Below are positions 1-47,650 of a DNA stretch of 47,650 bases, one piece after another (the first letter of the stretch is position 1; each line of letters begins with the position of its first letter). Under the pieces are notes generated by a model. The model did not search any database and was not told the origin of the DNA. It saw only the letters and a list, made by a program, of their open reading frames with translations. Source of the stretch: a virus. Lineage: Duplodnaviria; Heunggongvirae; Uroviricota; Caudoviricetes. A program made the position numbers and the translations under genes. Location: IMG/VR virus record IMGVR_UViG_2541047798_000009. One strand, written 5' to 3'.

Positions 1-221
1 ACCCGCAAACCACACTTCCCTTTAAAACGCGTAACATACATTGCTTGCGTTTAACTTTCTTTGAACTCTTGCAGAAAAATGAGAATTCGTGAGTACGATC
101 ACTCAAAATCGCCTGGCAAAAATAAAATCACCCTATAGATGCACAAAAAACGGGCAAAACTACCTGGTTCGCAAAACTGCGTCTAAAGTTAAACCGGGAC
201 CTCGCGAGCAAGGGTGAGACG

Positions 222-290
222 ATGGCGCTTTACACAATTGGTGAAGTGGCGTTGCTTTGTGATATTAACCCTGTCACGTTACGCGCGTGA
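222..290 (+). pseudogene. mlrA: 5' fragment of a MerR-family regulator gene (MALYTIGEVALLCDINPVTLRA then TGA), interrupted at the prophage junction
   Basis: ATG at 222 encodes MALYTIGEVALLCDINPVTLRA, a MerR-type HTH N-terminus recalled from memory as matching E. coli MlrA/YehV; the frame hits TGA where Trp is expected and downstream sequence is phage-like. Identity to mlrA is from memory, not a search. Confidence 0.45.
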
Positions 291-404
291 CGCAACATTT
301 TTAAAAATCGACGAAGATCGTCCAGGAGCGCCATTTTTCAAGGGTTGGACAGATGATTCGTTTTCGATGTCGACGAACTTCGACGGATTTCGCCGATAAA
401 AAGT

Positions 405-448
405 GTCCCATACATGCCCCATAGATGCCCCATAGATGCCCCATAGGC
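405..448. repeat. Four tandem copies of an 11-bp unit (GCCCCATAGAT, two perfect, two degenerate)
   Basis: Direct reading: gtcccatacat / gccccatagat / gccccatagat / gccccataggc immediately upstream of the dinI-like promoter; the period is about one helical turn. Confidence 0.8.
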
Positions 449-459
449 AATATTACCAA

Positions 460-512
460 TTGACACTGGTTATCCACACAGCTAAAAATAACACCTGTAC
501 ATAACTACAGTT
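460..512 (+). promoter_or_regulatory. Sigma70-like promoter (TTGACA -35, 17-bp spacer, TAAAAA -10) with overlapping LexA box CTGT-N8-ACAG
   Basis: -35 TTGACA at 460-465; -10 at 483-488; acCTGTacataactACAGtt at 493-512 matches the SOS box pattern CTGT-N8-ACAG with AT-rich spacer; AGGAGG RBS and ATG at 526 follow. Confidence 0.7.
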
Positions 513-525
513 ACAGGAGGGGGTT

Positions 526-774
526 ATGCGTGTTGAGATCTGTATCGCTAAAGAAAAAATCAGCAAAATGCCGAAAGGTTCTGTTCCTGCTCTGCAGCAA
601 GAAATGCTGCGCCGCATAGGTAAGCGATATGACGATGCAGATGTGATCGTTAAATCTGCCAGCAATGATGGACTCACCATTTTAAGAGCCGTCGATAAAG
701 AATCAGCACTGGAGTTCGTACAGGAAACACTACAGGAAGTCTGGCAAACCGCGGACGACTGGTTTATGCAATAA
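526..774 (+). CDS. DinI-like damage-inducible protein (82 aa)
   Basis: Translation [40 protein letters not shown]...WQTADDWF resembles E. coli DinI in length and in the N-terminal MR.E..IAK and C-terminal ADDWF motifs; preceded by a LexA box and strong RBS. Confidence 0.85.
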
Positions 775-24889: not shown

Positions 24890-25231
24890 TCAGGGTGCAG
24901 AAGGACTAAAGATAAACGTTTTCTTCACGCCTTTACACGGCCTGTCCTTCTCAAATCGCCATTTTGCCATCGCCTTTACAACCTGCTCATCAAACAAATG
25001 GTGCGGCTCTGAACGGATAAACTCAATTCGGGTGACAGTACCATCAGCACCAATATCAAACTTCACATCAACCCGTCCCTTTATATAATTTGCCGCTGCA
25101 TAGGCCGGATATTGTGGTAATGCCTTAACCAACTGTCGGGGCATATCTGTTTTATGTTGCGTACAGCCCATAACCAGAGAAGACAACAAAATAATTAACG
25201 GAAGATTTCTTTTCATTTTCATTCCCGGCAC
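24890..25231 (-). CDS. Lipoprotein with TonB C-terminal-like domain (about 110 aa; likely start at 25216-25222)
   Basis: Lipobox LVMGC after a signal peptide; C-terminal YPAYAAANYIKGRVDVKFDIGADGTVTRIEFIRSEPHHLFDEQVVKAMAKWRF fits the TonB_C pattern. Confidence 0.6.
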   Translation of the reverse strand: MPGMKMKRNLPLIILLSSLVMGCTQHKTDMPRQLVKALPQYPAYAAANYIKGRVDVKFDIGADGTVTRIEFIRSEPHHLFDEQVVKAMAKWRFEKDRPCKGVKKTFIFSPSAP

Positions 25232-28838: not shown

Positions 28839-30800
28839 TCATGCCGCGGCATCCGCGTTGTTCACTTCCACCTTCACACTGTCAATCAGCAGCGTATATG
28901 TCGCCGCCTTTGATATGCCTGTCAGTTGCAGTTTGTCCGCCGCCCCTGATGCCGGAGATTTCACCAGTGTGAACGGCGTCCCCCGTTTCTCATCCAGTAC
29001 CGGCGTCACCTGAATGCTGTTGTTTCCGGCAAACTCAAAAGCCAGTGTGTGCCATCCGTTATCAAAGACCCCGAACGTATCCAGCTTCGCATTCGGCTTC
29101 TTGTGGTGCATCGCGTTCAGGTTCGTCGCATCCGTCTGCAGGAAGAAGGACATCAGCATGTCGTTGCCTTCCTCTGCCAGCGTCACTCCCTCCGGCAGGG
29201 ACGACAACTGCCAGTAAATGCCCAGGGCAAACTGATTCGGCACCAGTGAACCCGGCAACTTAAACCGTACGCTCACACGTCCCCCCTTCTTCAGTAACTC
29301 CACTCCCTGTCCGGCTGCATCATGCTCCAGAAACCAGATGTGGTTTTCCGGTTTATTCAGTTGCAGGGCCTTACCTCCCGTAGCCCCCGCATCACTGACC
29401 ACCGCTTCAGCAATGTTTTTGTTAACATTGTCTCCGCTCGCCGGTTTGTGATAATAGCGCCAGCCCTGTGATGCCAGGTCTTCGCCGGACGCCAGCAGAC
29501 TCATCAGGGTTCGGTTACTGACCGGGGCTTCCGGCTCTCTCTCCGTACCTTCACCGGAAGGTCCGGTGGGCTTCACCGTATCAGGCTGTTTTCCGGTAAT
29601 GAATTCAGCGTTTCTCCCGGCATGCACAAGAATCGCCGTTGCCAGACGGTCGGAAATAATCCCACGACGTGCCCATGATCCAAAATGCGTTTTACGGTCA
29701 GCCGTCGTCCAGGTTTTGGCGTCCGTTCGACCACCGGCTCCGTAATACCCAATATCCGCAACATCCGGATCTTCTGACGGCTCGTTGGTACCCACATTTC
29801 GCCCGTTTTCATCCGTCATAAACGGCACAAAGAAGATTTTTTTTGCGGATTTCGTCTTGTATGCACCATACACCGCATCGTATTGCGAAGAATAAGTCTG
29901 CTTCCAGTAGTAGGTCGTGTCGCCACAAATCCAGGGAACTGATGACGGAGAGCCCCCGAGACACTGACCTCCGAATTCCGACAGGTCAGAACGATATTTT
30001 TCCACCATGGAATCAAACAGCCCCGGCTGAGTGGCGTATGCACCCTGTTTCAAATCAAACTCGCCCTGCATCCAGACCACTGCAAGCAGAATATTTTTAG
30101 GGTTGGCCTTCAGTGCGGCCTGAGTACGGGTAAGCAGGTCCTTGTACAGTGGCTTATCTACACCCCAGCGTGCCGAGGTCTCGCTTGCGCCGGTGGATTC
30201 GCTGAAGGTACCTTCATCGCCCGCCAAAAATGCAGAACCACCACGGCAGCACGGAACCAGAAGAATACCGGCATTCGCCGGAATAAACGGCAACAATTTC
30301 TTCGCGATATGTAATCCCTGCCCCACGCATCCATACTGAGCTGCGCTGGCTTTCGGGTGTGAAAACTTACTCAAATCCTGAACATCATGCAGGCAGTGGT
30401 CCGCAGGAATAATGTCATTGTAGTTACAGGACGCACCACCCGGCGTGACAGTGCTGCGACGCGCCAGCTGTTTAATACGCGGGTCCGGACGGTCATATGT
30501 CTCCGGCAGCGGAAGCCCTTCACCATACGCCATACCGTTTGACTGCCCGGCCAGGGCAACAACAAAGTAATACTCCGGGTTGCTGGTGGTGCTGATAACT
30601 GCGCCTTCTCCATCCGACGGCTTCACCACCACAGGTGTGGTGACATCACCTTCCGCCGCAATGGCCTGCATCAGGGTATAAGGCGTGATGGCCACCGGAC
30701 TGCCAAATGGCTGCCACCCCTCCTTCAGTTTTTGTGTCAGTCGTTTCGCAAGGTCTGACGGCGATGCCGCCCTGACCACGTCATAGTGTTTAAATGCCAT
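28839..30800 (-). CDS. Prophage sialate O-acetylesterase (NanS-p-like: DUF1737 N-domain plus SGNH esterase, 653 aa)
   Basis: N-terminal MAFKHYDVVRAASPSDLAKRLTQKLKEGWQPFGSPV... and size match the large esterase ORF found downstream of stx in Stx phages, as recalled. Confidence 0.8.
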   Translation of the reverse strand: MAFKHYDVVRAASPSDLAKRLTQKLKEGWQPFGSPVAITPYTLMQAIAAEGDVTTPVVVKPSDGEGAVISTTSNPEYYFVVALAGQSNGMAYGEGLPLPETYDRPDPRIKQLARRSTVTPGGASCNYNDIIPADHCLHDVQDLSKFSHPKASAAQYGCVGQGLHIAKKLLPFIPANAGILLVPCCRGGSAFLAGDEGTFSESTGASETSARWGVDKPLYKDLLTRTQAALKANPKNILLAVVWMQGEFDLKQGAYATQPGLFDSMVEKYRSDLSEFGGQCLGGSPSSVPWICGDTTYYWKQTYSSQYDAVYGAYKTKSAKKIFFVPFMTDENGRNVGTNEPSEDPDVADIGYYGAGGRTDAKTWTTADRKTHFGSWARRGIISDRLATAILVHAGRNAEFITGKQPDTVKPTGPSGEGTEREPEAPVSNRTLMSLLASGEDLASQGWRYYHKPASGDNVNKNIAEAVVSDAGATGGKALQLNKPENHIWFLEHDAAGQGVELLKKGGRVSVRFKLPGSLVPNQFALGIYWQLSSLPEGVTLAEEGNDMLMSFFLQTDATNLNAMHHKKPNAKLDTFGVFDNGWHTLAFEFAGNNSIQVTPVLDEKRGTPFTLVKSPASGAADKLQLTGISKAATYTLLIDSVKVEVNNADAAA

Positions 30801-31398
30801 GAATCCTCCCGGCCGGGATAATATTGTGAGTAAAATAAGGAGCGGGCTGAAGTCCGGAAGTTACAGGACAATGGCAGAAGAGAGACGACAGCCCGCAATT
30901 CGAAAAAGACCGCGCAGTTGCGCAGAGTGATTACTATGGGGTATTATTCGTCAGCTGAAATATTACTTCACGTTTTATTGTTTATTCCTTGCCGCCCGCG
31001 TCTCCCAGCGCGGGCTTTTTTTGTCCATAAGAAAGCCCCTCCGGAGAGGGGCTGGAGAGTGGCGCTATGTGCCATTGCATGATGCCGGGTGCCTCCCGGT
31101 GAGTTCAGCCCGGTGACACTGAACCCGCGTCATTCTCGTTTTGATAATCAGAGATTATACCATCACCAGTCGCCCCTCCGCTCAGGGGGATTCACCATGC
31201 CGTTCTCTTTTAACAAATTCGCCGCTAACAGGACAACATTCCGCTTTCTGAGTTGTGAGGAATTTAACACTTCACACCTGTGTGCATTTTCTACAGGCTG
31301 ATCCCAGCACCACAATACATCGCAGGCAACAGAAGCCAAATGCCCCACCACAGAAAAAACATGCAATTATGATTATTGTTTACTGCAAAGATGTAGAA

Positions 31399-31827
31399 TC
31401 ACGGTTTAAAATCCAGCACTCCATTGTGAAATACTTTATATACTTCCGGAGACGGCGGAACTGGTATATCAGCATGCTTCACCGCATTCATCGCTTCACG
31501 ACATAAATCGGGGTCTCCACCTTCTCTTTTAACCTGTAGCAGAAGACCATTCGGGGCCATATACATTCTCAGTGAACACTCTTTTCCTGAATACTTACTC
31601 GCATCCTTTAACTGTTCTTCTATGGCTTTCCTGACCTGAATGGCATACTGCCTGATTTCTTCACTGGCATCAGGGGTACGTTCCGATGAGCTCAAATTTT
31701 GCGACTTTATTAATTTATCTGAGTGATACAGAGAAGCATCATAATTATTTGTCGATACATCTTTTGTGCAGCCAGTTGTCAGACTGGCTAATATCAAAAC
31801 AAGAACTGGTACAGCACGGCAATACAT
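31399..31827 (-). CDS. Lipoprotein of unknown function (142 aa; possible TolA/TonB C-terminal-like fold)
   Basis: Signal peptide with lipobox LTTGC; occupies the slot between the tRNAs and the esterase where stx sits in Stx phages. Confidence 0.5.
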   Translation of the reverse strand: MYCRAVPVLVLILASLTTGCTKDVSTNNYDASLYHSDKLIKSQNLSSSERTPDASEEIRQYAIQVRKAIEEQLKDASKYSGKECSLRMYMAPNGLLLQVKREGGDPDLCREAMNAVKHADIPVPPSPEVYKVFHNGVLDFKP

Positions 31828-32105
31828 TTATCCATCTCCATATTAACAAGAACAATTATCTATAAAATATAGTAAATATGCGGGATCCGGGAGGACTTGT
31901 AACTATCATCTCCGGATCAGCATGTAGTTTTTATTTTTCCGGATGATATATGCCGCAATAATACCTCTGCATACAGATGCCTGCAAATATCTGCGAAGCA
32001 TCCGGCGAGAATAAACAAGGAAGTCTGAGGCTATCTTATATGATAGCCTGTTGCTCAAAAGACAATGATTCACTCATCAGAACCAACAACGCATAATGCA
32101 GATAA

Positions 32106-32182
32106 TGGACCGCCATCGAGGACTCGAACCCCGCGCAGCCAGCTTCGAAGGCTGGCGCTCTATCCCGATGAGCTAATGGCGG
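32106..32182 (-). tRNA. tRNA-Arg (anticodon UCG by hand folding)
   Basis: Hand-folded cloverleaf: 7-bp acceptor, D-arm GCTC/GAGC, anticodon stem CCAGC/GCTGG with loop CTTCGAA, T-arm CGGGG-TTCGAGT-CCTCG, CCA encoded. Confidence 0.7.
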
Positions 32183-32191
32183 TATGTGATA

Positions 32192-32267
32192 TGGTGGCCC
32201 TTGCTGGATTTGAACCAGCGACCTGGCGATTATGAGTCGCTCGCTCTCACCACTGAGCTAAAGGGCC
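32192..32267 (-). tRNA. tRNA-Ile2 (anticodon CAU, ileX/ileZ-like)
   Basis: Sequence GGCCCTTTAGCTCAGTGGTGAGAGCGAGCGACTCATAATCGCCAGGTCGCTGGTTCAAATCCAGCAAGGGCCACCA is very close to E. coli ileX as recalled; anticodon loop CTCATAA. Confidence 0.8.
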
Positions 32268-32646: not shown

Positions 32647-33096
32647 AAAAACCCGCTCGACGGCGGGTTTAAGCTGTGTGACGAAGTAACCACTCTTAAC
32701 AGCATAACCAATTTTTTACGTACGTAAACTACTAAATGATATTTGTGAGAATGCCACCGAGTGTTCAAAACACCACCACAAATACATAAGAAAACCTCAA
32801 CAAATAACCAATGAATAATTTCCGATGTTATTTTTAGGTTGTTTAAATTAAGCCAAAAAATTATAGGGCGCTTATAAATAAGTGTCATTAATATAAATTA
32901 GCTAATAGATTTATTTTTGTTCAAACAAGAGCCATGAATAGGATTAGATAGAAAAGGTTCAGATAAAAATAGAGATCTACGTCACAAATTAAATGAGAAA
33001 CTAAAACTTACATCTTGAAATAATCACATTGATTAGATGAATATTTATCGCGCAGTGACATCATTTTTTTATAATAGTTCAAAAAAAGGGCGTACA

Positions 33097-34179
33097 ATGA
33101 AAAAATTAACAGTGGCAATTTCTGCTGTAGCTGCATCAGTACTGATGGCGATGTCTGCTCAGGCAGCTGAAATTTATAATAAAGACAGTAACAAGCTGGA
33201 TCTATACGGGAAAGTTAATGCCAAGCACTACTTCTCCTCTAATGATGCAGATGATGGTGATACTACTTATGCTCGTCTTGGCTTCAAAGGTGAAACCCAA
33301 ATCAACGATCAACTGACTGGTTTCGGTCAGTGGGAATATGACTTCAAAGGCAACCGTGCTGAATCTCAAGGTTCTTCCAAAGACAAAACCCGTCTTGCAT
33401 TTGCAGGCCTGAAATTTGGTGATTACGGCTCAATCGATTACGGTCGTAACTACGGTGTAGCATACGACATCGGTGCGTGGACTGACGTTCTGCCAGAATT
33501 CGGTGGTGATACCTGGACCCAGACAGATGTGTTCATGACTGGCCGCACTACTGGTGTTGCAACTTATCGTAACAACGACTTCTTTGGTCTGGTCGATGGC
33601 CTGAACTTTGCTGCTCAGTATCAGGGTAAAAATGACCGCACTGACGTAACTGAAGCCAATGGTGATGGTTTCGGTTTCTCCACTACTTATGAGTATGAAG
33701 GATTCGGCGTGGGTGCAACCTATGCTAAATCAGATCGCACTGACGGTCAGGTCGCCTATGGTAAGAGCAAATTCAATGCCTCCGGCAAAAATGCGGAAGT
33801 ATGGGCTGCAGGCCTGAAATATGATGCGAACAATATCTATCTGGCTACCACATATTCTGAAACTCAGAATATGACCGTTTTTGGTAATAACCATATTGCA
33901 AACAAAGCACAAAACTTTGAAGCAGTAGCACAATATCAGTTTGACTTCGGTCTGCGCCCATCTGTTGCTTACCTTCAGTCAAAAGGTAAAGACCTTGGTG
34001 TTCATGGTGACCGAGACTTAGTCAAGTATGTCGATGTCGGTGCTACTTACTACTTTAATAAAAACATGTCCACTTTTGTTGATTACAAAATCAACTTAAT
34101 TGACGATAGTAAGTTTACCAAAACAGCTGGTATTGATACCGACGACATCGTCGCTGTAGGTCTGGTTTATCAGTTCTAA
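33097..34179 (+). CDS. Outer-membrane porin (OmpC/OmpF/NmpC/Lc family, 361 aa)
   Basis: Signal peptide [23 protein letters not shown] then [23 protein letters not shown]... and C-terminal ...[11 protein letters not shown]-rich promoter region upstream; antisense to late transcription as nmpC is in DLP12. Confidence 0.9.
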
Positions 34180-34367: not shown

Positions 34368-34760
34368 TCAATTAGAATTATTAGCAACGATATCCATATC
34401 TAACCGGATATCTAATGCCATTAACATCCCTTCAATTATGCCCTCAGCCTTCTGTAACCTTTTCCCGATATAACCATCCGAGCAGCAATGCTTACTTGCC
34501 AGTGACATGAATGTCATACCACATACATAATAATCTACTAATAAATCGTGTAAATCGCTGTTGTTCTTTTTCAGACGGGCCATGCACCCGCAAATGATCA
34601 TCGCGTCATCGTCACAACATTGCGGGCGAGATTTTACTTTTGAAGGAATTAATCCCTTAAAACCGGCAGCAATGGACGACCAGGTCACATCCTCATGATT
34701 ATTTGCCGCCCATGCGCCCCAGCGTTCAAGAACCATCTGAATATCACGCATTATTCGCAC
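34368..34760 (-). CDS. Late-gene antiterminator Q (DLP12 QuuD-like, 130 aa, GTG start)
   Basis: [60 protein letters not shown]... matches QuuD as recalled. Confidence 0.88.
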
Positions 34761-35608
34761 TCACCAACCAGATTGAGAATGACCGCTGCACCGTCGTCTT
34801 CCATGCATTCACCCTTACCACTTGCCAGAAACCAGCGGCACGCCTCCACGGCTTCAGCGCGTGTCACCGGTTTGATGGTTGCCAGCAATTTTTCAAGGTA
34901 GCGCTCCCGGTCATATACCGATTCGTGATGCTCAGAGTAACCAAACTCATCGCCCTGTTCTTTAGTTGCAGTGTGGCGAACACTGTAGAGCCAGTCCCAG
35001 TAAACGAACTCGCGAACAACATCAGACAGCGTATAAGGCTCAGGCAGCACATCGCGATATCCATCAACAAATGCCCGACGCTGTTCATCAATTTCGGTCA
35101 TGCGGCTGCCGCCAATGCTTCCGGCTTTTTTCTCTGCCGCAGTCCAGCCCCAGAGATGATCGTTGATAAATTTCTGGGAAGACCTGATGACCCGCTCTGC
35201 TTCCACATCTTCGAGCGCTGCTTCATAGCTACCAAACATAGCCCTGACTGATGCCGCTTTTTTGATGTTCTCCCGGGCGTTCCTGATAACCTGCGCAGGG
35301 TTATCCATGCCGATGATGCCGAACGCAACCTGGAAAGGTTCGTAACCATTCGCCAGCAGATAACGCGAATAGCGTTCCTGAGCCTCTTTTGGGGAAATTT
35401 TAATTTTCACCAGCGCAGCCTCAGCAGCATCCAGATGTGCGGGTTCGTTCAGACGGATAACCTCCAGCACCCAAAGATAAGCATCAGTCTGCTTATGCCC
35501 GGTGATTCTCCGTTGCTCTGGCAGGGGCTTGATGTTTGCGAGGGCGGAGCTGTACGCTGCCGTCGGGATGGTGAATAGTGCTTTATGTTCGTTATTATCA
35601 GTACGCAT
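34751..35608 (-). CDS. Hypothetical protein (285 aa) in the nin-equivalent region upstream of Q
   Basis: Long ORF coupled to neighbouring genes; no domain recognised. Confidence 0.5.
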
Positions 35609-36576
35609 TACGCAACCGCCTTTTTCTTATGGAAAACCAGCTCTCGAACCTGATCACCGTTCATGAGCATATTGTTGAAATCATCGTGATCCGGCCAGTA
35701 CACGCTCACGCGCTGCAGGTCATTCTTTGCCATCAGATTGGCATGAGCACATTCGCAAGCCGCAGCCAGCCCGGTGGCGCTGTTCTCGTCACGGTCGGCA
35801 AAAATAATCAGGTGCAGAACACCAGCTGGTACGCGAAACTTTTTCATAAAGCCGCTGTTAATGGTTGCCCAGGTGTTCACGTTATAAATCTGGTGCGCTG
35901 ACAGCGCTGTTTCGATGCCTTCGGCGATACCCAGAGTGCTGGCGACAGGAAACATGCGGATAGCTACAGAACGAGCGTGATCCAAATAGTTATCTTCCTG
36001 CAGGGATTTGAGGCGCTTTGCACTGCTACCGATATCTGCTTTTTTATCACCATCAAGCAGAGTCTGGTGCAGATAGCACAACTCCCCTTTATCGTCCGTA
36101 GCAAGTGAATAAAGAGACTGGAACACACTCCCGTTGTGTCTCTGCCTGGCATTGAACCGGATCGCCTCAGCAGGAAGACTGAATATTCCACGAGAATTAA
36201 GATACGCTGCGCCGGATGTACCACGCAGTGCCTCCAGTTTTGAAAACTTGCTCAATACCCGTTTGCGTAAGCTGGTGGCGCTGCTGGTTACCGGGATTTT
36301 AACCCGTTGGTAATCATTACCGATCAGGCGGTCTATTTCGGTACAAATCTCGTTAAATGGCTTCGCCTGTGTCAGGGTGACAAGTTTCATACCATCGCCA
36401 CTACCACATACACAGATCCACGTTCCTGCACCGTCGCGGTCGTCAATTCGGAACTTGCCACGTGCACCGCATACCGGGCATTCACCCTTGAAGTGATTTT
36501 TTCCGGTTATCGGCGGCAGACCGAAGTGCTCTAATATTTCAGGCCAGCGGCCTTTCGCTGCATCTGCTGTTTTCAT
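35608..36576 (-). CDS. DNA primase (zinc-ribbon plus Toprim domain, 322 aa)
   Basis: CPVCGARGKFRIDDRDGAGTWICVCG zinc ribbon; Toprim motifs GIAEGIETALS and LIIFADRDENSATG. Confidence 0.8.
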   Translation of the reverse strand: MKTADAAKGRWPEILEHFGLPPITGKNHFKGECPVCGARGKFRIDDRDGAGTWICVCGSGDGMKLVTLTQAKPFNEICTEIDRLIGNDYQRVKIPVTSSATSLRKRVLSKFSKLEALRGTSGAAYLNSRGIFSLPAEAIRFNARQRHNGSVFQSLYSLATDDKGELCYLHQTLLDGDKKADIGSSAKRLKSLQEDNYLDHARSVAIRMFPVASTLGIAEGIETALSAHQIYNVNTWATINSGFMKKFRVPAGVLHLIIFADRDENSATGLAAACECAHANLMAKNDLQRVSVYWPDHDDFNNMLMNGDQVRELVFHKKKAVA

Positions 36577-36577
36577 C

Positions 36578-38236
36578 TTACTGACTCAGACTGTTTATAT
36601 TTTTCTGGAGTTGGTGCTTTGCCTGCATGATGCGCCAGGCCTCACTGCCTGCCGGTATCTCACGTCGTTCATCACGTTCCTGAGATAAATCAATCGTTGT
36701 TTGTGCGTTTTCAGTGACCTTCTGAACCCGCTGGTGGCCTTTGGCAAACCGGATCAGTTTGTGTCTGATGTAGTTATTTACCTCAGGGGTAATTTCCATC
36801 GGAAAGTTACTCAGTCCGTCAGGCCACTCACCGAACTTTTCCCGGAAAGTGTGAGCACACCATCCGTCACTGACTGGACGCCCCAGCGAAGCACGCTGGC
36901 GCTGATAAAATTTGATCTGACTCCACCAGGACTGTTTCTCTGCCTTCGTCGACTGATGCTGATTTTTACCCAGCTTATTAAGTTTGCGGCTAGTGTCAGT
37001 ATCAACGTCTTCACCTCGCAGCGGCTTGTGTCCACATTTCGGGCAAACATAGACGCCTGCTGGCTTCATGTAGTGGCATTGAGGGCATTCATGTGGCAGT
37101 TTTTCGGCCCGTTCCTCAACTGCCCGGCGCGCGCTTTCCTCCATGCCGTCAGACTTACCGGGAAGCTCGTCGTACTCGATTGAATCCGGATAACCCAAAC
37201 GGTGCACGGTGCCGCTGTGATCGAAGATAAGGCAGGACTCTTTACCCGGTGCGGTGCGCAGCCCACGCCCGAGAGCCTGCAACCAGCGAATTTCGCTTTT
37301 TGTTGGCCTGGCGTAGATGATGCAACGAACGTCACTATCAAAGCCGGCCACCAGAACGCCCACACTAACGATGATTTTCGTTGCACCGGTTTCAAAGCGG
37401 TGAATGATGGTCTGGCGCTCATCTACCGGAGTGTCGGCGGTCATTACCTCAGCGTTAACACCCGCCAGGTTAAACTGGATTGTCAGATAATTGGCGTGAG
37501 CTACGTTGACGCAGAAAGCGATGGTAGGTAAATCCCGACCATTCTCCAGCCAGTTCTGTACGATGTCGCCCACCAGCGTAGAGCCGCACATGATTTCAGC
37601 CAGCTGTGTTTCGTTGTAATCGCGGCCGTACTCAAGCGAAGATGTGGTTTTAACACCTTTCAGATCCGGCTTAGTTGGCGCGTAAAATTCGTATTTACTC
37701 AGATCGCCACGCTGGATTAACTCGCCGATGGTGGTCGGCTTAATCAGTCGGTCATAGTATTTGCCCAGGAACGGAGAAAACGGAGTACCCGACAGGCCAA
37801 TCACCTTTACGCCTTTGCCGCGCAGACGTTCGATATCCTTCAGGATGCGTTTTTTACGCAGGTGCGCTTCGTCGATAATCAGCAGATCGATATTTTCAGG
37901 AAAAACACGACGAATAAGCGTGTCAGCGCTGGCAATCTGAATTTTCCGGTCCGGATCGTAGTTCGGGTGATCCGCCCAGATATAACCGATTTCATCTCCA
38001 GGTAAACCATACTGCACGAACCGATTAGCCGTCTGACCAATCAGGATGGTGTACGGAACACAGAACAGAACACGCATACCACGGCTGACAAAACCAGCAA
38101 CTATGAAGGCTGCCAGACCCGTTTTACCGCTACCTGTTGGCGAATACACCATGAAGGTGTCGTTTGCCTTCCAGTCACGGCGCAACATGTTTAACGCTCG
38201 TTCCTGTGCAAAATTCGGCGTGATCGTCAGCTCCAT
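36578..38236 (-). CDS. SF2 (DEAD/DEAH-box) DNA helicase with C-terminal zinc ribbon (552 aa)
   Basis: Walker A YSPTGSGKTG, DEAH box LLIIDEAH, SGTP motif, and CPQCHYMKPAGVYVCPKCGH. Confidence 0.85.
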   Translation of the reverse strand: MELTITPNFAQERALNMLRRDWKANDTFMVYSPTGSGKTGLAAFIVAGFVSRGMRVLFCVPYTILIGQTANRFVQYGLPGDEIGYIWADHPNYDPDRKIQIASADTLIRRVFPENIDLLIIDEAHLRKKRILKDIERLRGKGVKVIGLSGTPFSPFLGKYYDRLIKPTTIGELIQRGDLSKYEFYAPTKPDLKGVKTTSSLEYGRDYNETQLAEIMCGSTLVGDIVQNWLENGRDLPTIAFCVNVAHANYLTIQFNLAGVNAEVMTADTPVDERQTIIHRFETGATKIIVSVGVLVAGFDSDVRCIIYARPTKSEIRWLQALGRGLRTAPGKESCLIFDHSGTVHRLGYPDSIEYDELPGKSDGMEESARRAVEERAEKLPHECPQCHYMKPAGVYVCPKCGHKPLRGEDVDTDTSRKLNKLGKNQHQSTKAEKQSWWSQIKFYQRQRASLGRPVSDGWCAHTFREKFGEWPDGLSNFPMEITPEVNNYIRHKLIRFAKGHQRVQKVTENAQTTIDLSQERDERREIPAGSEAWRIMQAKHQLQKNINSLSQ

Positions 38237-42218: not shown

Positions 42219-42407
42219 ATGAACATTTATTTCAGAATAGTTATATCACTGGCAATTATCACATGTATTTACGGATTAATCGTTCCGGCCCTCATATCAA
42301 TGAAGGATACGGTAGCAGTGATTTCTGGCTTTGCTCTGGCGTGTCTGACCCCGCCCTGCATTTATGCCATTTATAAGGGTCTTTCTTTTTCTAAGGATAA
42401 AAGATGA
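42219..42407 (+). CDS. Small two-helix membrane protein (62 aa)
   Basis: Two hydrophobic helices (IVISLAIITCIYGLIVPALI and VISGFALACLTPPCIYAIY); its stop overlaps the SPFH gene start by 4 nt. Confidence 0.5.
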   Translation: MNIYFRIVISLAIITCIYGLIVPALISMKDTVAVISGFALACLTPPCIYAIYKGLSFSKDKR

Positions 42408-43231
42408 AAAAATTACTTTTTGCTTTAGCCCTTGTTCTGCCGACCATTGGCCTTGTCGGTTGCGATCGCGTTGAGCCTGGTAATGTGGGCATCAAAGTAA
42501 ACAAACTGGGCGACGATAAAGGCGTCGGTGAAGTGGTCGGTGTTGGGCGCTACTGGACGGGATGGAACACTGAGGTTTACATCTTCCCGACCTTTAAGCA
42601 GATGAAGACCTACGATGATCCATTCAGTTTCCAGATGAGTGACGGTACAACCATCGGCTATCACATCGGCGTGGCCTACAAAGTTGATCCATCCAAAGTT
42701 ACCACAGTCTTTCAGACCTACCGCAAAGGCGTGGACGACATTACCGACACCGACCTGCGCCAGAAGATAGCCGACGCACTCAACCGACTGGCCAGCAAAA
42801 TGACCACCGACAAATTTATCGACGGCGGCAAGTCTGAGCTGCTGGATGCAGCTCTTAAAGACATTCAGGAAGAAATGACGCCCATCGGTATTCAGGTAAT
42901 GAGCCTCTCATATGTGGGTAAGCCGGAGTACCCGCCTACTGTTATCGACAGCATTAATGCCAAAGTCACGGCGAACCAGAAAACCCTGCAACGCGAGCAG
43001 GAAGTAAAACAGCGCGAAGCGGAAGCCAACATGTTGCGCGCGGAAGCTGCCGGACAGGCAGATGCGATTCGCACAAAAGCCCAGGCCGAAGCCGATGCTA
43101 TTCGTTTACGCGGTGAAGCTCTGCGCCAGAACCCCGGTGTTATGGAGCTGGAAGCCATCAACAAGTGGAACGGTACACTGCCGCAATACATGACCAGCGG
43201 TGCCAACACACCATTTATTCAGGTTAAGTAA
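42404..43231 (+). CDS. SPFH/band-7 (HflC/prohibitin-like) lipoprotein (275 aa)
   Basis: Lipobox LVGC after the signal peptide; SPFH-like core and an Ala/Glu/Arg/Gln-rich coiled-coil tail (…QREAEANMLRAEAAGQADAIRTKAQAEADAIRLRGEA…). Confidence 0.65.
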   Translation: MKKLLFALALVLPTIGLVGCDRVEPGNVGIKVNKLGDDKGVGEVVGVGRYWTGWNTEVYIFPTFKQMKTYDDPFSFQMSDGTTIGYHIGVAYKVDPSKVTTVFQTYRKGVDDITDTDLRQKIADALNRLASKMTTDKFIDGGKSELLDAALKDIQEEMTPIGIQVMSLSYVGKPEYPPTVIDSINAKVTANQKTLQREQEVKQREAEANMLRAEAAGQADAIRTKAQAEADAIRLRGEALRQNPGVMELEAINKWNGTLPQYMTSGANTPFIQVK

Positions 43232-43274
43232 TACATATGCCCGGTATTACACGTCGGGCTGTCTGGAGATAAAA

Positions 43275-44024
43275 ATGAATATTGTAACCATCAACAACAA
43301 ACAGTTTCCGGTAATCGAATATCGCGGTCAGCGTGTTGTGACATTTGCAATAATTGATGACGTCCACCAGCGCCCGGAAGGTACCGCCCGTGCTGCGTTT
43401 AACCGCAACCGTTCTCACTTTATCGAAGGGGTGGATTTTCTTGAAATGACTGCGGACGTAATACGTACGGAGTCACTTTCTGATGCCTTTGCCGCGCGAA
43501 CTGCCAAAGGGATCATTCTTTTCGAGTCTGGTTACCTGATGTTGACGAAGCCTTTTAACGATACTCTTGCATGGCAGGTTCAGCGCGAACTGGTTAACAG
43601 CTATTTCCGAACTCACGCGCCGCTGACGGAAATGGAGATGATCGCTGCAATGGCCGCCGATGCCGTTCGCCAGCAGAAGCGCCTGAGTCATGTTGAAGAG
43701 AAGATCGAAACAGTCACCAAAGCTGTGGAGAACATCAAACGCGGCACAATGCGCACCGGATATGTCGGTTACCGCCAGGTGGTAGCCAAAAGCGGAATGA
43801 GTGACGCCAAGTGCCGGAATCTGGTCAACGCCTACCACATCCCTACCGACACGCACGAATTTATGACTCCGGACGGTCTGTTGTCTCGCAGGGCTATCGT
43901 CGAGCTTGAGACATTTATGGCGGCATTCCACCAAATGATGTCAGAGGCTGAACCACGCGGCACACGCTGGTATCACCCGAAGATGGGGCTTTTCCAGGTA
44001 ATCGGATGGGAGGATAAAGCATGA
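43275..44024 (+). CDS. ORF6N-domain protein (putative antirepressor, 249 aa)
   Basis: N-terminal FPVIEYRGQRVVTFAIIDDVHQRPEGTARAAFNRNRSHFIEGVDF fits the ORF6N/AntA-type domain found in phage antirepressors. Confidence 0.55.
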   Translation: MNIVTINNKQFPVIEYRGQRVVTFAIIDDVHQRPEGTARAAFNRNRSHFIEGVDFLEMTADVIRTESLSDAFAARTAKGIILFESGYLMLTKPFNDTLAWQVQRELVNSYFRTHAPLTEMEMIAAMAADAVRQQKRLSHVEEKIETVTKAVENIKRGTMRTGYVGYRQVVAKSGMSDAKCRNLVNAYHIPTDTHEFMTPDGLLSRRAIVELETFMAAFHQMMSEAEPRGTRWYHPKMGLFQVIGWEDKA

Positions 44025-46076: not shown

Positions 46077-46364
46077 ATGCAGACAATCATCTATCAGATA
46101 ACCCCCAGCAAATGGTGTACGGAGAGAGTCCTCATTGCATCAACAGGGCTAAAGCCTGGCACCATTGAGCGGGCAAGAAGAAAGTCATGGATGCAGGGAA
46201 AAGAATACCGCCATTACGCTGTAGAAGGTGATCCGGGGCACTACAGTGAATGCCTGTACAACACGAAGAAATTATGCGATGGATCGAAAACCAGAAACAA
46301 CCAGGTGCCAAAAATGCAAGTTCCGGTTAACCTGTTAATGCTCCTGGACGTCTGGGAGGTTTAA
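46077..46364 (+). CDS. Excisionase-like protein (95 aa)
   Basis: Small basic ORF immediately upstream of and coupled to the integrase gene. Confidence 0.5.
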   Translation: MQTIIYQITPSKWCTERVLIASTGLKPGTIERARRKSWMQGKEYRHYAVEGDPGHYSECLYNTKKLCDGSKTRNNQVPKMQVPVNLLMLLDVWEV

Positions 46365-47650
46365 TGAGTAACGCATCATACCCGACAGGCGTTGAAAACC
46401 ATGGAGGATCACTCCGTATATGGTTTCACTATAATGGCAAACGTGTCAGAGAAAACCTCGGTGTTCCTGACACAGCCAAAAACCGGAAGATCGCTGGTGA
46501 ACTTCGCACTTCCGTTTGTTTTGCAATCAGAATGGGGAGTTTCGACTATGCCGCGCAGTTCCCTAATTCCCCTAACCTGAAACACTTTGGTCTGGGAAAA
46601 AGAGAGATAACCGTTAAGGCACTTTCGGAAAAATGGTTGGACCTTAAGAAAATTGAGATTTGTGCGAATGCACTTAACCGTTACCAGTCAGTAATTAAAA
46701 ACATGTTACCAATGTTAGGTGAAAAAAAACTGGTTTCATCCATAACAAAAGAGGATTTACTTTTCGTAAGGAGAGATTTGTTGACCGGTTACCAAAAGCT
46801 TTCTAATGGAAAGACTTCTTCCATAAAAGGGCGCTCAGTGGTCACGGTAAACTACTATATGACAACCATAGCTGGAATGTTTCAATTTGCAACAGATAAT
46901 GGTTATACCTCAGGAAACCCATTTAACGGTCTGGCTCCCTTAAAAAAGTCCAAGGTAAAACCAGATCCTCTCACCCGTGACGAATTTATTCGTTTTATTG
47001 AGGCTTGCCGTCATCAACAAACAAAAAACCTGTGGATTCTCGCTGTATACACGGGTATTCGTCACGGGGAGTTGGTATCGCTGGCATGGGAAGATATAGA
47101 CCTTAAAGCAAGGACTATAACCATCCGTAGAAATTATACAAAACTTGGCGAATTCACTCCACCAAAAACCGATGCAGGCACCGGAAGGACAATTCATCTG
47201 GTTCAACCAGCTATTGATGCTCTTAAAAGCCAGGCGGAAATGACCATGCTTGGAAAGCAACATTCTGTAGAGGTGAAGCAGAGGGAATATGGGAGAACTG
47301 CTGTGCATAAATGCACTTTTGTTTTTAGTCCTCAGGTAACAAAACAGCAGCAGTTGTCCGGACCTCACTACAAGGTTGACTCCATCAGGGAGTCATGGAC
47401 AAGTATCTTAAAACGCGCAGGTCTGAGACACAGAAAATCGTACCAATCCAGGCATACTTATGCATGCTGGTCACTTGCCGCAGGAGCTAATCCTAGTTTT
47501 ATCGCAAGCCAGATGGGCCACACAAACGCACAAATGGTATTCAATGTTTACGGAGCATGGATGAAAGACAACAATCACGAACAGATAGAACTCCTTAACA
47601 AAAGACTATCTGAAAGTGTCCCATGTATGCCCCATAAGAAAGCTGGGTAA
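46364..47650 (+). CDS. int: Tyrosine integrase (lambda Int family, 428 aa)
   Basis: Arm-binding N-terminus; catalytic region with ...RHTYACWSLAAGANPSFIASQMGHTNAQMVFNVYGAW... (R, H-x-x-R, Y pattern); ends at the last base of the window. Confidence 0.92.
   Translation: MSNASYPTGVENHGGSLRIWFHYNGKRVRENLGVPDTAKNRKIAGELRTSVCFAIRMGSFDYAAQFPNSPNLKHFGLGKREITVKALSEKWLDLKKIEICANALNRYQSVIKNMLPMLGEKKLVSSITKEDLLFVRRDLLTGYQKLSNGKTSSIKGRSVVTVNYYMTTIAGMFQFATDNGYTSGNPFNGLAPLKKSKVKPDPLTRDEFIRFIEACRHQQTKNLWILAVYTGIRHGELVSLAWEDIDLKARTITIRRNYTKLGEFTPPKTDAGTGRTIHLVQPAIDALKSQAEMTMLGKQHSVEVKQREYGRTAVHKCTFVFSPQVTKQQQLSGPHYKVDSIRESWTSILKRAGLRHRKSYQSRHTYACWSLAAGANPSFIASQMGHTNAQMVFNVYGAWMKDNNHEQIELLNKRLSESVPCMPHKKAG

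Follow-up and report, generated by a model that had tools for sequence, protein, structure and literature searches.

The probable attL junction of a lambdoid prophage within the biofilm regulator gene mlrA (yehV) of Escherichia coli

Genes and features of the locus

The stretch of DNA analysed, 47,650 nucleotides in length and hereafter called the window, opens with E. coli chromosomal DNA leading into the first codons of mlrA (yehV) and continues from position 290 to 47650 as a complete-looking lambdoid prophage of approximately 47.4 kb. The features on which the argument is built are the following, with the evidence given in brackets.

1-221, plus strand: host DNA between btsS and mlrA, including the native mlrA upstream (promoter) region (99-100% identity, 5,426 genomes)
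222-290, plus strand: truncated mlrA' ORF ending in a junction-made TGA (ORF, translation, locus alignment, Pfam)
269-289, no strand: 21-bp att core CCCTGTCACGTTACGCGCGTG (three-way alignment of attB, attL and attR, exact-string check)
273-291, no strand: perfect inverted repeat GTCACG-TTACGCG-CGTGAC (repeat search)
290-480, no strand: A/T-rich phage arm of attL, the int-distal attP arm (homology to intact mlrA ends at 289)
404-446, plus strand: putative arm-type sites, three overlapping copies with 11-bp spacing, (T)GYCCCATAS-ATGCCCCATAG (repeat search)
526-774, plus strand: DinI-like protein of 82 aa, first phage gene by attL (PF06183, E=6.7e-17)
28839-30800: nanS-p
46077-46364, plus strand: excisionase, xisR-type, DUF1233, with a 1-nt deletion (Pfam PF06806, alignment)
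46364-47650, plus strand: tyrosine integrase of 428 aa (Pfam PF12167 arm-DNA-binding and PF00589 catalytic domains)
47618-47636, plus strand: copy of the arm-type motif, GTCCCATGTATGCCCCATA, in the int 3' end (motif search, reconstructed attP)

The lambdoid gene set includes terminase, portal and capsid proteins, tape measure, J, Lom, tail fibre, holin and lysozyme, Q, replication functions and HTH regulators. The left half is ordered from the DinI-like gene, the homologue of which is equally annotated DinI-like in GmF052 and O157 strain 9000, over tail fibre, Lom, J, tape measure and head genes to the terminase. A TonB_C ORF, the lysis genes, nanS-p, a TolA-C ORF, two tRNAs, a porin and Q follow the terminase, with a module of primase and DEAD-box helicase, HTH regulators, SPFH, Ea22-like accessory genes, xis and int located after Q.

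The left junction and the truncated mlrA reading frame

Strain EC9682 (L002) served as the reference for an intact locus, with the order btsS, mlrA (243 aa), yohO and yehW, btsS ending at 2000 and mlrA starting at 2222. Window positions 1-289 match this locus base for base. By megablast, the segment 1-420 found a match in each of the complete E. coli genomes (5,426/5,426), and in genomes with an annotated intact mlrA this match is confined to 1-289 at 99.3-100% identity and, with an E value of ~1e-148, lies far beyond chance. The preliminary description had considered a 5' fragment not matching mlrA as speaking against its reading; such a failure was not encountered, as 1-289 aligns to all 5,426 genomes.

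The ORF at 222-290 reads ATG GCG CTT ... CGC GCG TGA and consists of ATG, 21 further codons and TGA, thus 22 sense codons. Its product, MALYTIGEVALLCDINPVTLRA, equals residues 1-22 of intact MlrA (L002 2222-2953). The match to the MlrA N-terminus consequently holds, with the count of 23 codons in the preliminary description to be corrected to 22, the 23rd being the stop. Within the TGA at 288-290, host identity extends through T288 and G289 and then ends, and A290, with which sequence exclusive to the phage begins, turns the native TGG (Trp23) into TGA; the earlier remark that the frame is stopped exactly where phage-like sequence begins is literally true. In GmF052 and O157 strain 9000, PGAP treats the same 66 nt as a pseudogene and marks it as incomplete.

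In intact MlrA, Pfam locates MerR_1 at 4-72, MlrA_helical at 81-155 and MlrA_C at 162-238, whereas in the 22-residue fragment only residues 5-21 align, with positions 1-17 of the 38 in the Pfam MerR model. No single polypeptide with a MerR helix-turn-helix followed by the helical and C-terminal domains of MlrA is encoded by 222-290, which is a gene fragment and no member of the MerR-family regulator MlrA. Equally, the mlrA promoter region at 1-221 is now split from most of mlrA.

A single base change at position 290 would also create the stop codon, and the truncation might then reflect a plain nonsense mutation, in which TGG became TGA, or else a rearrangement unconnected with the phage. However, similarity to mlrA ends altogether at 289 and is succeeded by 47 kb of phage genes, and lysogens show the remainder of mlrA directly behind int together with the 21-bp repeat, which leaves this explanation with a next to negligible probability and favours the prophage junction.

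The right junction and the displaced mlrA remnant

The 428-aa integrase ORF (46364-47650, plus strand) ends with the last base of the window and points outward, in agreement with what had been noted before. As the DNA past 47650 lies outside the window, attR was read in relatives with a 100% identical int (AR_0017 and GmF052). The identity of int to that of AR_0017 and GmF052 is at the DNA level, and WP_000063648.1 is the annotated integrase of both strains as well as of O157:H7 strain 9000. In AR_0017, int is followed by 37 bp, the core, the rest of mlrA and then yohO and yehW. In GmF052, both junctions are present on one chromosome approximately 49.5 kb apart in the order btsS, 66-nt mlrA remnant, DinI-like gene, prophage, xis, int, rest of mlrA, yohO and yehW, an arrangement equally found in AR_0017 and O157:H7 strain 9000. 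For the genome from which the window derives, attR past 47650 would then be composed of a phage arm of ~37 bp, AATAAAAACTTGCAAAATCAATTAGTTTACCCTTAAT, followed by CCCTGTCACGTTACGCGCGTG and subsequently GCAGAGGCGTTACGG with the rest of mlrA.

The gene mlrA is thus split into a 5' part on the side of btsS and a remainder on the side of yohO and yehW, the latter side taken from the lysogens with identical int. An intact mlrA next to the region, which would also have spoken against the preliminary description, is not observed in the lysogens compared; with the two mlrA halves flanking the prophage, neither of the observations held against that description has been made.

The remnant at attR, which keeps MerR_1 profile positions 16-68 together with MlrA_helical and MlrA_C, is devoid of MerR profile positions 1-15, the start of the helix-turn-helix. 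PGAP has nevertheless named it 'HTH-type transcriptional regulator MlrA' in AR_0017, GmF052, O157 strain 9000 and GN06667 (L001 3872-4573, L004 2872-3573, L008 46538-47239 and L007 from 23033). The start assigned is a non-canonical ATT for three of these genomes, which yields 233 aa, and another one for the fourth, which yields 228 aa. This label and the retained domains might be read to indicate that mlrA is still functional, with read-through from int, or phage promoters, driving expression of the attR-side ORF of 233 or 228 aa. In fact, SOS induction raises distal mlrA transcripts, and over-expressed recombinant fragments partly restore Congo-red binding (PMC5931665), so that a complete loss of MlrA function is not proven. 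However, the ATT start varies among genomes, an in-frame TAA is located 18 nt upstream of PGAP's start, no ATG, GTG or TTG occurs in the mlrA frame at attR before residue 29, MerR positions 1-15 are missing and the native promoter is ~47 kb distant. Moreover, distal mlrA fragments are transcribed upon induction without a rescue of csgD expression, and the published loss of curli and biofilm is rescued by mlrA provided in trans (PMC3874044, PMC5931665). A functional remnant is considered very unlikely, and the PGAP 'mlrA' genes with an ATT start at attR look like annotation artefacts. As a promoter-less remnant truncated in its HTH is labelled MlrA, screens for gene presence would miss the disruption.

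Phages integrating into tRNA genes rebuild the gene end at the junction. A functional 5' end of mlrA rebuilt by the phage at attR was equally considered and rejected in view of the in-frame stop, the lack of a canonical start and the mere 21 bp shared.

The att core and putative integrase sites

The 21-bp sequence CCCTGTCACGTTACGCGCGTG is the identity common to the empty site, to attL of the window and to attR of near-identical prophages, with exact copies at attL (window, L005) and attR (L001, L004, L007) and once in attB (L002). Within the window it is found once, even if three mismatches are allowed, with 0 copies expected. The core is consequently a direct repeat present at both junctions, with attR from the relatives, and single in unoccupied sites; aligning the two ends to an uninterrupted mlrA, as had been proposed to define the core repeats, thus delivered a 21-bp repeat with the aid of near-identical lysogens. 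Judged by this identity, the crossover is to be placed somewhere within 269-289 and not at 289/290. Of the boundary at the stop codon put forward previously, the end of host homology at 289 is retained, while the point of crossover shifts to within the core.

Inverted core-type integrase sites around the overlap region of strand exchange represent the usual layout. The perfect inverted repeat here has its halves at 273-278 (GTCACG) and 286-291 (CGTGAC) with the 7-bp TTACGCG in between, and GTCACG-N7-CGTGAC can be seen as a pair of putative core-type sites of the integrase that enclose an overlap of 7 bp. A 'terminator-like' match at 272-292 was rejected, as it is merely the inverted repeat of the core, and a scan of 1-900 with sigma-70 and terminator consensus sequences gave nothing informative on the junction.

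Outside of the core, GTCCCATRYATGCCCCATA occurs only at both prophage ends, at 405-445 and 47618-47636, with four matches versus 0.05 expected. GTCCCATGTATGCCCCATA begins 71 bp before the attR core with its ATGCCCCATA part at -61, and in the reconstructed attP the ATGCCCCATA parts are located at -61 and at +145 to +167 relative to the core start. Present in both arms of attP, these ATGCCCCATA-type repeats are putative arm-type sites of the integrase. When the reconstructed attP was scanned for the IHF consensus, a single match (12 of 13 positions) turned up 22 bp ahead of the core, which is too weak to be considered. A cognate integrase (PF12167 and PF00589) and excisionase (DUF1233) are encoded next to one junction, and the combination of a motif restricted to the ends, an inverted repeat with a 7-bp spacer and an arm-binding domain would fit a lambda-type arrangement at the level of sequence pattern. 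In the mechanism proposed, the integrase would bind the inverted GTCACG/CGTGAC core sites and exchange strands across the 7-bp TTACGCG, with its N-terminal arm-binding domain contacting the ATGCCCCATA-type repeats of the two attP arms.

A natural comparison is offered by the Stx2 phages with a 21-bp att in yecE (Nakamura et al. 2021, PMC8112680; for example LC567842), for which arms and cores were compared between window 269-480 and L003 2990-3200 and L006 340-520. The integrase of these phages is 83% identical, with the first ~99 residues, within which the arm-binding domain lies, fully identical, and the int-distal attP arm is 91% identical with the ATGCCCCATA motif included. The core likewise spans 21 bp and conserves a GTCAC left arm and the full CGTGAC right arm, whereas the spacer reads TTAACTG versus TTACGCG here and the outer core bases also differ. 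The yecE phages target yecE, or a yecE-like sequence in an ompW prophage, in contrast to mlrA here. As this relative keeps the N-terminal domain and the motif and changes the spacer, the assignment of putative core- and arm-type sites is supported.

The tyrosine integrase of lambda is heterobivalent, has its arm-binding domain at the N-terminus and is encoded beside xis, and lambda attP has repeated arm-type sites on both arms and inverted core-type sites with a 7-bp spacer; the integrase and the putative att sites described here would conform to this layout. On the other hand, the att described here has no detectable sequence similarity to lambda; the best PDB match of the integrase is a non-lambda Int with E ~1e-7, solved integrases being only distant; and attB is positioned inside a coding sequence that is regenerated at neither junction.

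The yecE and mlrA phages might be regarded as a natural pair for the switching of target specificity, with cores that differ mainly in the 7-bp spacer. Testable sites for this integrase pair are the 21-bp core, GTCACG-N7-CGTGAC and the ATGCCCCATA arm repeats.

Interpretation of the junction and its expected consequences

Almost certainly, 222-290 is the attL of a lambda-like prophage of ~47.4 kb that recombined by its tyrosine integrase into an attB within mlrA (yehV), at codons 17-23. The mlrA promoter and codons 1-22 have stayed at attL and end at the junction-made TGA, while codons 17 onward would have been moved ~47 kb away behind int, deprived of a canonical start and of the beginning of the MerR HTH. 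Since mlrA is split, the sigma-S-dependent activation of csgD, curli and biofilm by MlrA is expected to be lost as long as the prophage stays.

The locus yehV/mlrA is a classic integration site of Stx1 phages (PMC3874044, PMC5931665, PMC8065619, PMC7175801), with Yokoyama 2000 and Shaikh and Tarr 2003 cited for the yehV site in PMC7175801, PMC5931665 and PMC8065619, and Uhlich 2013 and 2016 cited for yehV/mlrA prophages in PMC5931665 and PMC7175801. The preliminary description, which had referred to yehV as a known prophage integration site in EHEC, is in accordance with this literature (PMC3874044, PMC5931665, PMC8065619, PMC7175801). Prophages in mlrA remove curli and biofilm, and mlrA in trans or excision of the prophage brings both back (PMC3874044, PMC5931665, PMC8065619); cured O157:H7 derivatives have been described to form strong biofilms again. 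That insertion inactivates a curli and biofilm regulator is accordingly documented for published mlrA prophages; for the present strain, the inactivation of MlrA is what we infer. For the practice of annotation, mlrA should be recorded as disrupted in this strain, which probably forms little curli and biofilm when grown at low temperature.

The yehV prophages of O157:H7 (VT1-Sakai/Sp15, CP-933V and stx-negative kin) likewise have their attB inside mlrA. The attL arm of the O157:H7 strains 9000 and Z1615 is 97.9% identical over window 1-420, and the layout in strain 9000 is likewise btsS, mlrA', DinI, tail genes, ... xis, int and 'mlrA; the expected loss of MlrA-dependent curli and biofilm is alike. 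In contrast, the prophage in the window is without stx1, unlike the Stx1 prophages at yehV, and differs in its early, replication and cargo modules, with a DEAD-box helicase and toprim primase versus the lambda O/P-type genes of O157 strain 9000. It has a porin and ORFs with TolA-C and TonB-C domains as extras, its relatives are commensal and bloodstream isolates and not EHEC, and the frameshift in its xis is private. Phages at yehV negative for stx have, however, already been described (PMC7175801; O145 strains in PMC3874044). As mlrA has long been known as a phage integration site, the junction, correctly recognised from the outset, is an ordinary instance of an already known phenomenon, and the anatomy of the att site refines known biology and reveals nothing new in kind. 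The particular trait of the present case is that the mosaic phage is stx-negative and that the background of its host looks non-EHEC.

Occupancy of the mlrA site and closest relatives

A probe of 301 bp with the empty site at its centre is found unsplit in 4,944 genomes of the survey set, which comprises 5,426 complete E. coli genomes, so that the site is occupied in approximately 482 genomes (~9%). A match to window 1-420 with at least 80% coverage, which includes the phage arm, was obtained in 475 genomes; this coverage of the 420 bases entails the same junction and the same non-host arm. Thus 475 of the 482 genomes with a split mlrA site, O157:H7 included, possess this very phage arm. A prophage at the mlrA site in ~9% of E. 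coli, as judged from the complete genomes, and an int/attP module that rides on very different lambdoid backbones, Stx as well as non-Stx, are the broader aspects of this survey.

No genome of the complete E. coli set matches the whole window. The best partial matches are GmF052 with 99.5% over 1-25000 and GN06667 with 98.8% over 25001-47650. The closest relatives are human commensal and bloodstream E. coli isolates, GN06667 being of bloodstream origin; the host need not be EHEC, and its background looks non-EHEC.

Relation to Stx1-converting phages

An identical integration site, the integrase accession shared between the int-identical lysogens and O157:H7 strain 9000, and a structural half ~93% identical to Stx1a and Stx2a phages might suggest that the element is a Stx1-converting phage of the EHEC O157:H7 yehV type (Sp15/CP-933V) and the junction hence a toxin-phage boundary. 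In detail, phage JLK-2012 covers 84% of the structural half at ~93% identity, and Stx-converting phages rank next with coverages of 80-82%. Of the half with the early and regulatory genes, however, Stx phages cover only ~30%. Furthermore, the arrangement that characterises such a phage, stx1A/stx1B after Q and the tRNAs and before nanS-p and the lysis genes, is not found, as no ORF of the size of StxA is located between the tRNAs (32106-32267) and nanS-p (28839-30800); a 142-aa TolA_C ORF is all that the slot at 30801-32105 contains. Equally, the PGAP annotation of the 98.8%-identical prophage of GN06667 contains no Shiga toxin. This absence of stx is judged from the ORF sizes in the slot, the ORFs scanned and the annotation of the relative GN06667. 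With no StxA-size ORF at the usual slot and none annotated in the relative, identity as a Stx phage was rejected and is rated as highly improbable; the prophage at mlrA is treated as stx-negative.

The excisionase frameshift and reversibility

In an alignment with AR_0017, O157 strain 9000 and GN06667, xis of the window is short of one T between 46263 and 46264. The deletion shifts the frame of the C-terminal quarter and replaces the last 22 residues, and the PF06806 match comprises positions 1-61 of 70 in the Xis of the window versus 1-70 of 70 in AR_0017. None of the 512 complete genomes carrying this xis has the deletion; the best matches over the deletion site show 99.0% identity with a span of 101 nt versus the 100-nt query. 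The frameshift may either be a private mutation that impairs excision, by which mlrA would be kept disrupted, or result from an error of sequencing or assembly.

Going by the sequence, recombination within 269-289 would restore wild-type mlrA exactly. It is conceivable, though unlikely, that the stx-negative prophage acts as a reversible switch of mlrA ('active lysogeny') in commensal and extra-intestinal E. coli, a reading that stays compatible with the data as excision restores mlrA by sequence and cured O157:H7 strains regain biofilm formation. If so, curli and biofilm would be switched on when the prophage excises at the 21-bp core in a regulated, non-lytic manner and switched off when it re-integrates, and the private xis frameshift would have locked the present copy in the 'off' state.

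Accessory genes of the prophage

Several genes of the prophage deserve a description of their own. The 142-aa ORF at 31399-31827 (minus strand) has a C-terminal domain that matches domain III of E. coli TolA (phmmer, 89 aligned residues, E ~1e-26) and a signal- or lipobox-like N-terminus (...LASLTTGC), and it occupies the slot of stxAB in Stx phages between the tRNAs and nanS-p. This TolA-like product could act as a decoy against TolA-dependent colicins or filamentous phages; a literature search on prophage-encoded lipoproteins with a TolA domain found nothing relevant. A second phage-borne envelope energy-transduction domain beside the TolA-like ORF is a TonB C-terminal domain in an ORF of 113 aa (24890-25231, minus strand, PF03544 E=1.4e-14) between the terminase and lysis regions.

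The replication module at 35608-38236 (minus strand) combines a primase with toprim and zinc ribbon and a DEAD/ResIII helicase. Proteins with SPFH (Band 7) and ORF6N domains are encoded in the early-left region at 42404-44024 (plus strand). The two phage tRNAs at 32106-32267 (minus strand) are a tRNA-Arg (anticodon TCG) and a tRNA with the anticodon CAT, assigned as Met by ARAGORN and as Ile (lysidine type) by PGAP in relatives; at the matching position, three tRNAs are present in the mlrA prophage of O157:H7. A full-length general porin gene at 33037-34179 (plus strand, PF00267 E=2.5e-151), designated 'OmpC' by PGAP in relatives, has the tRNA genes on one side and the Q antiterminator (34368-34760) on the other and presumably resembles the Lc and NmpC porins of phages PA-2 and DLP12.
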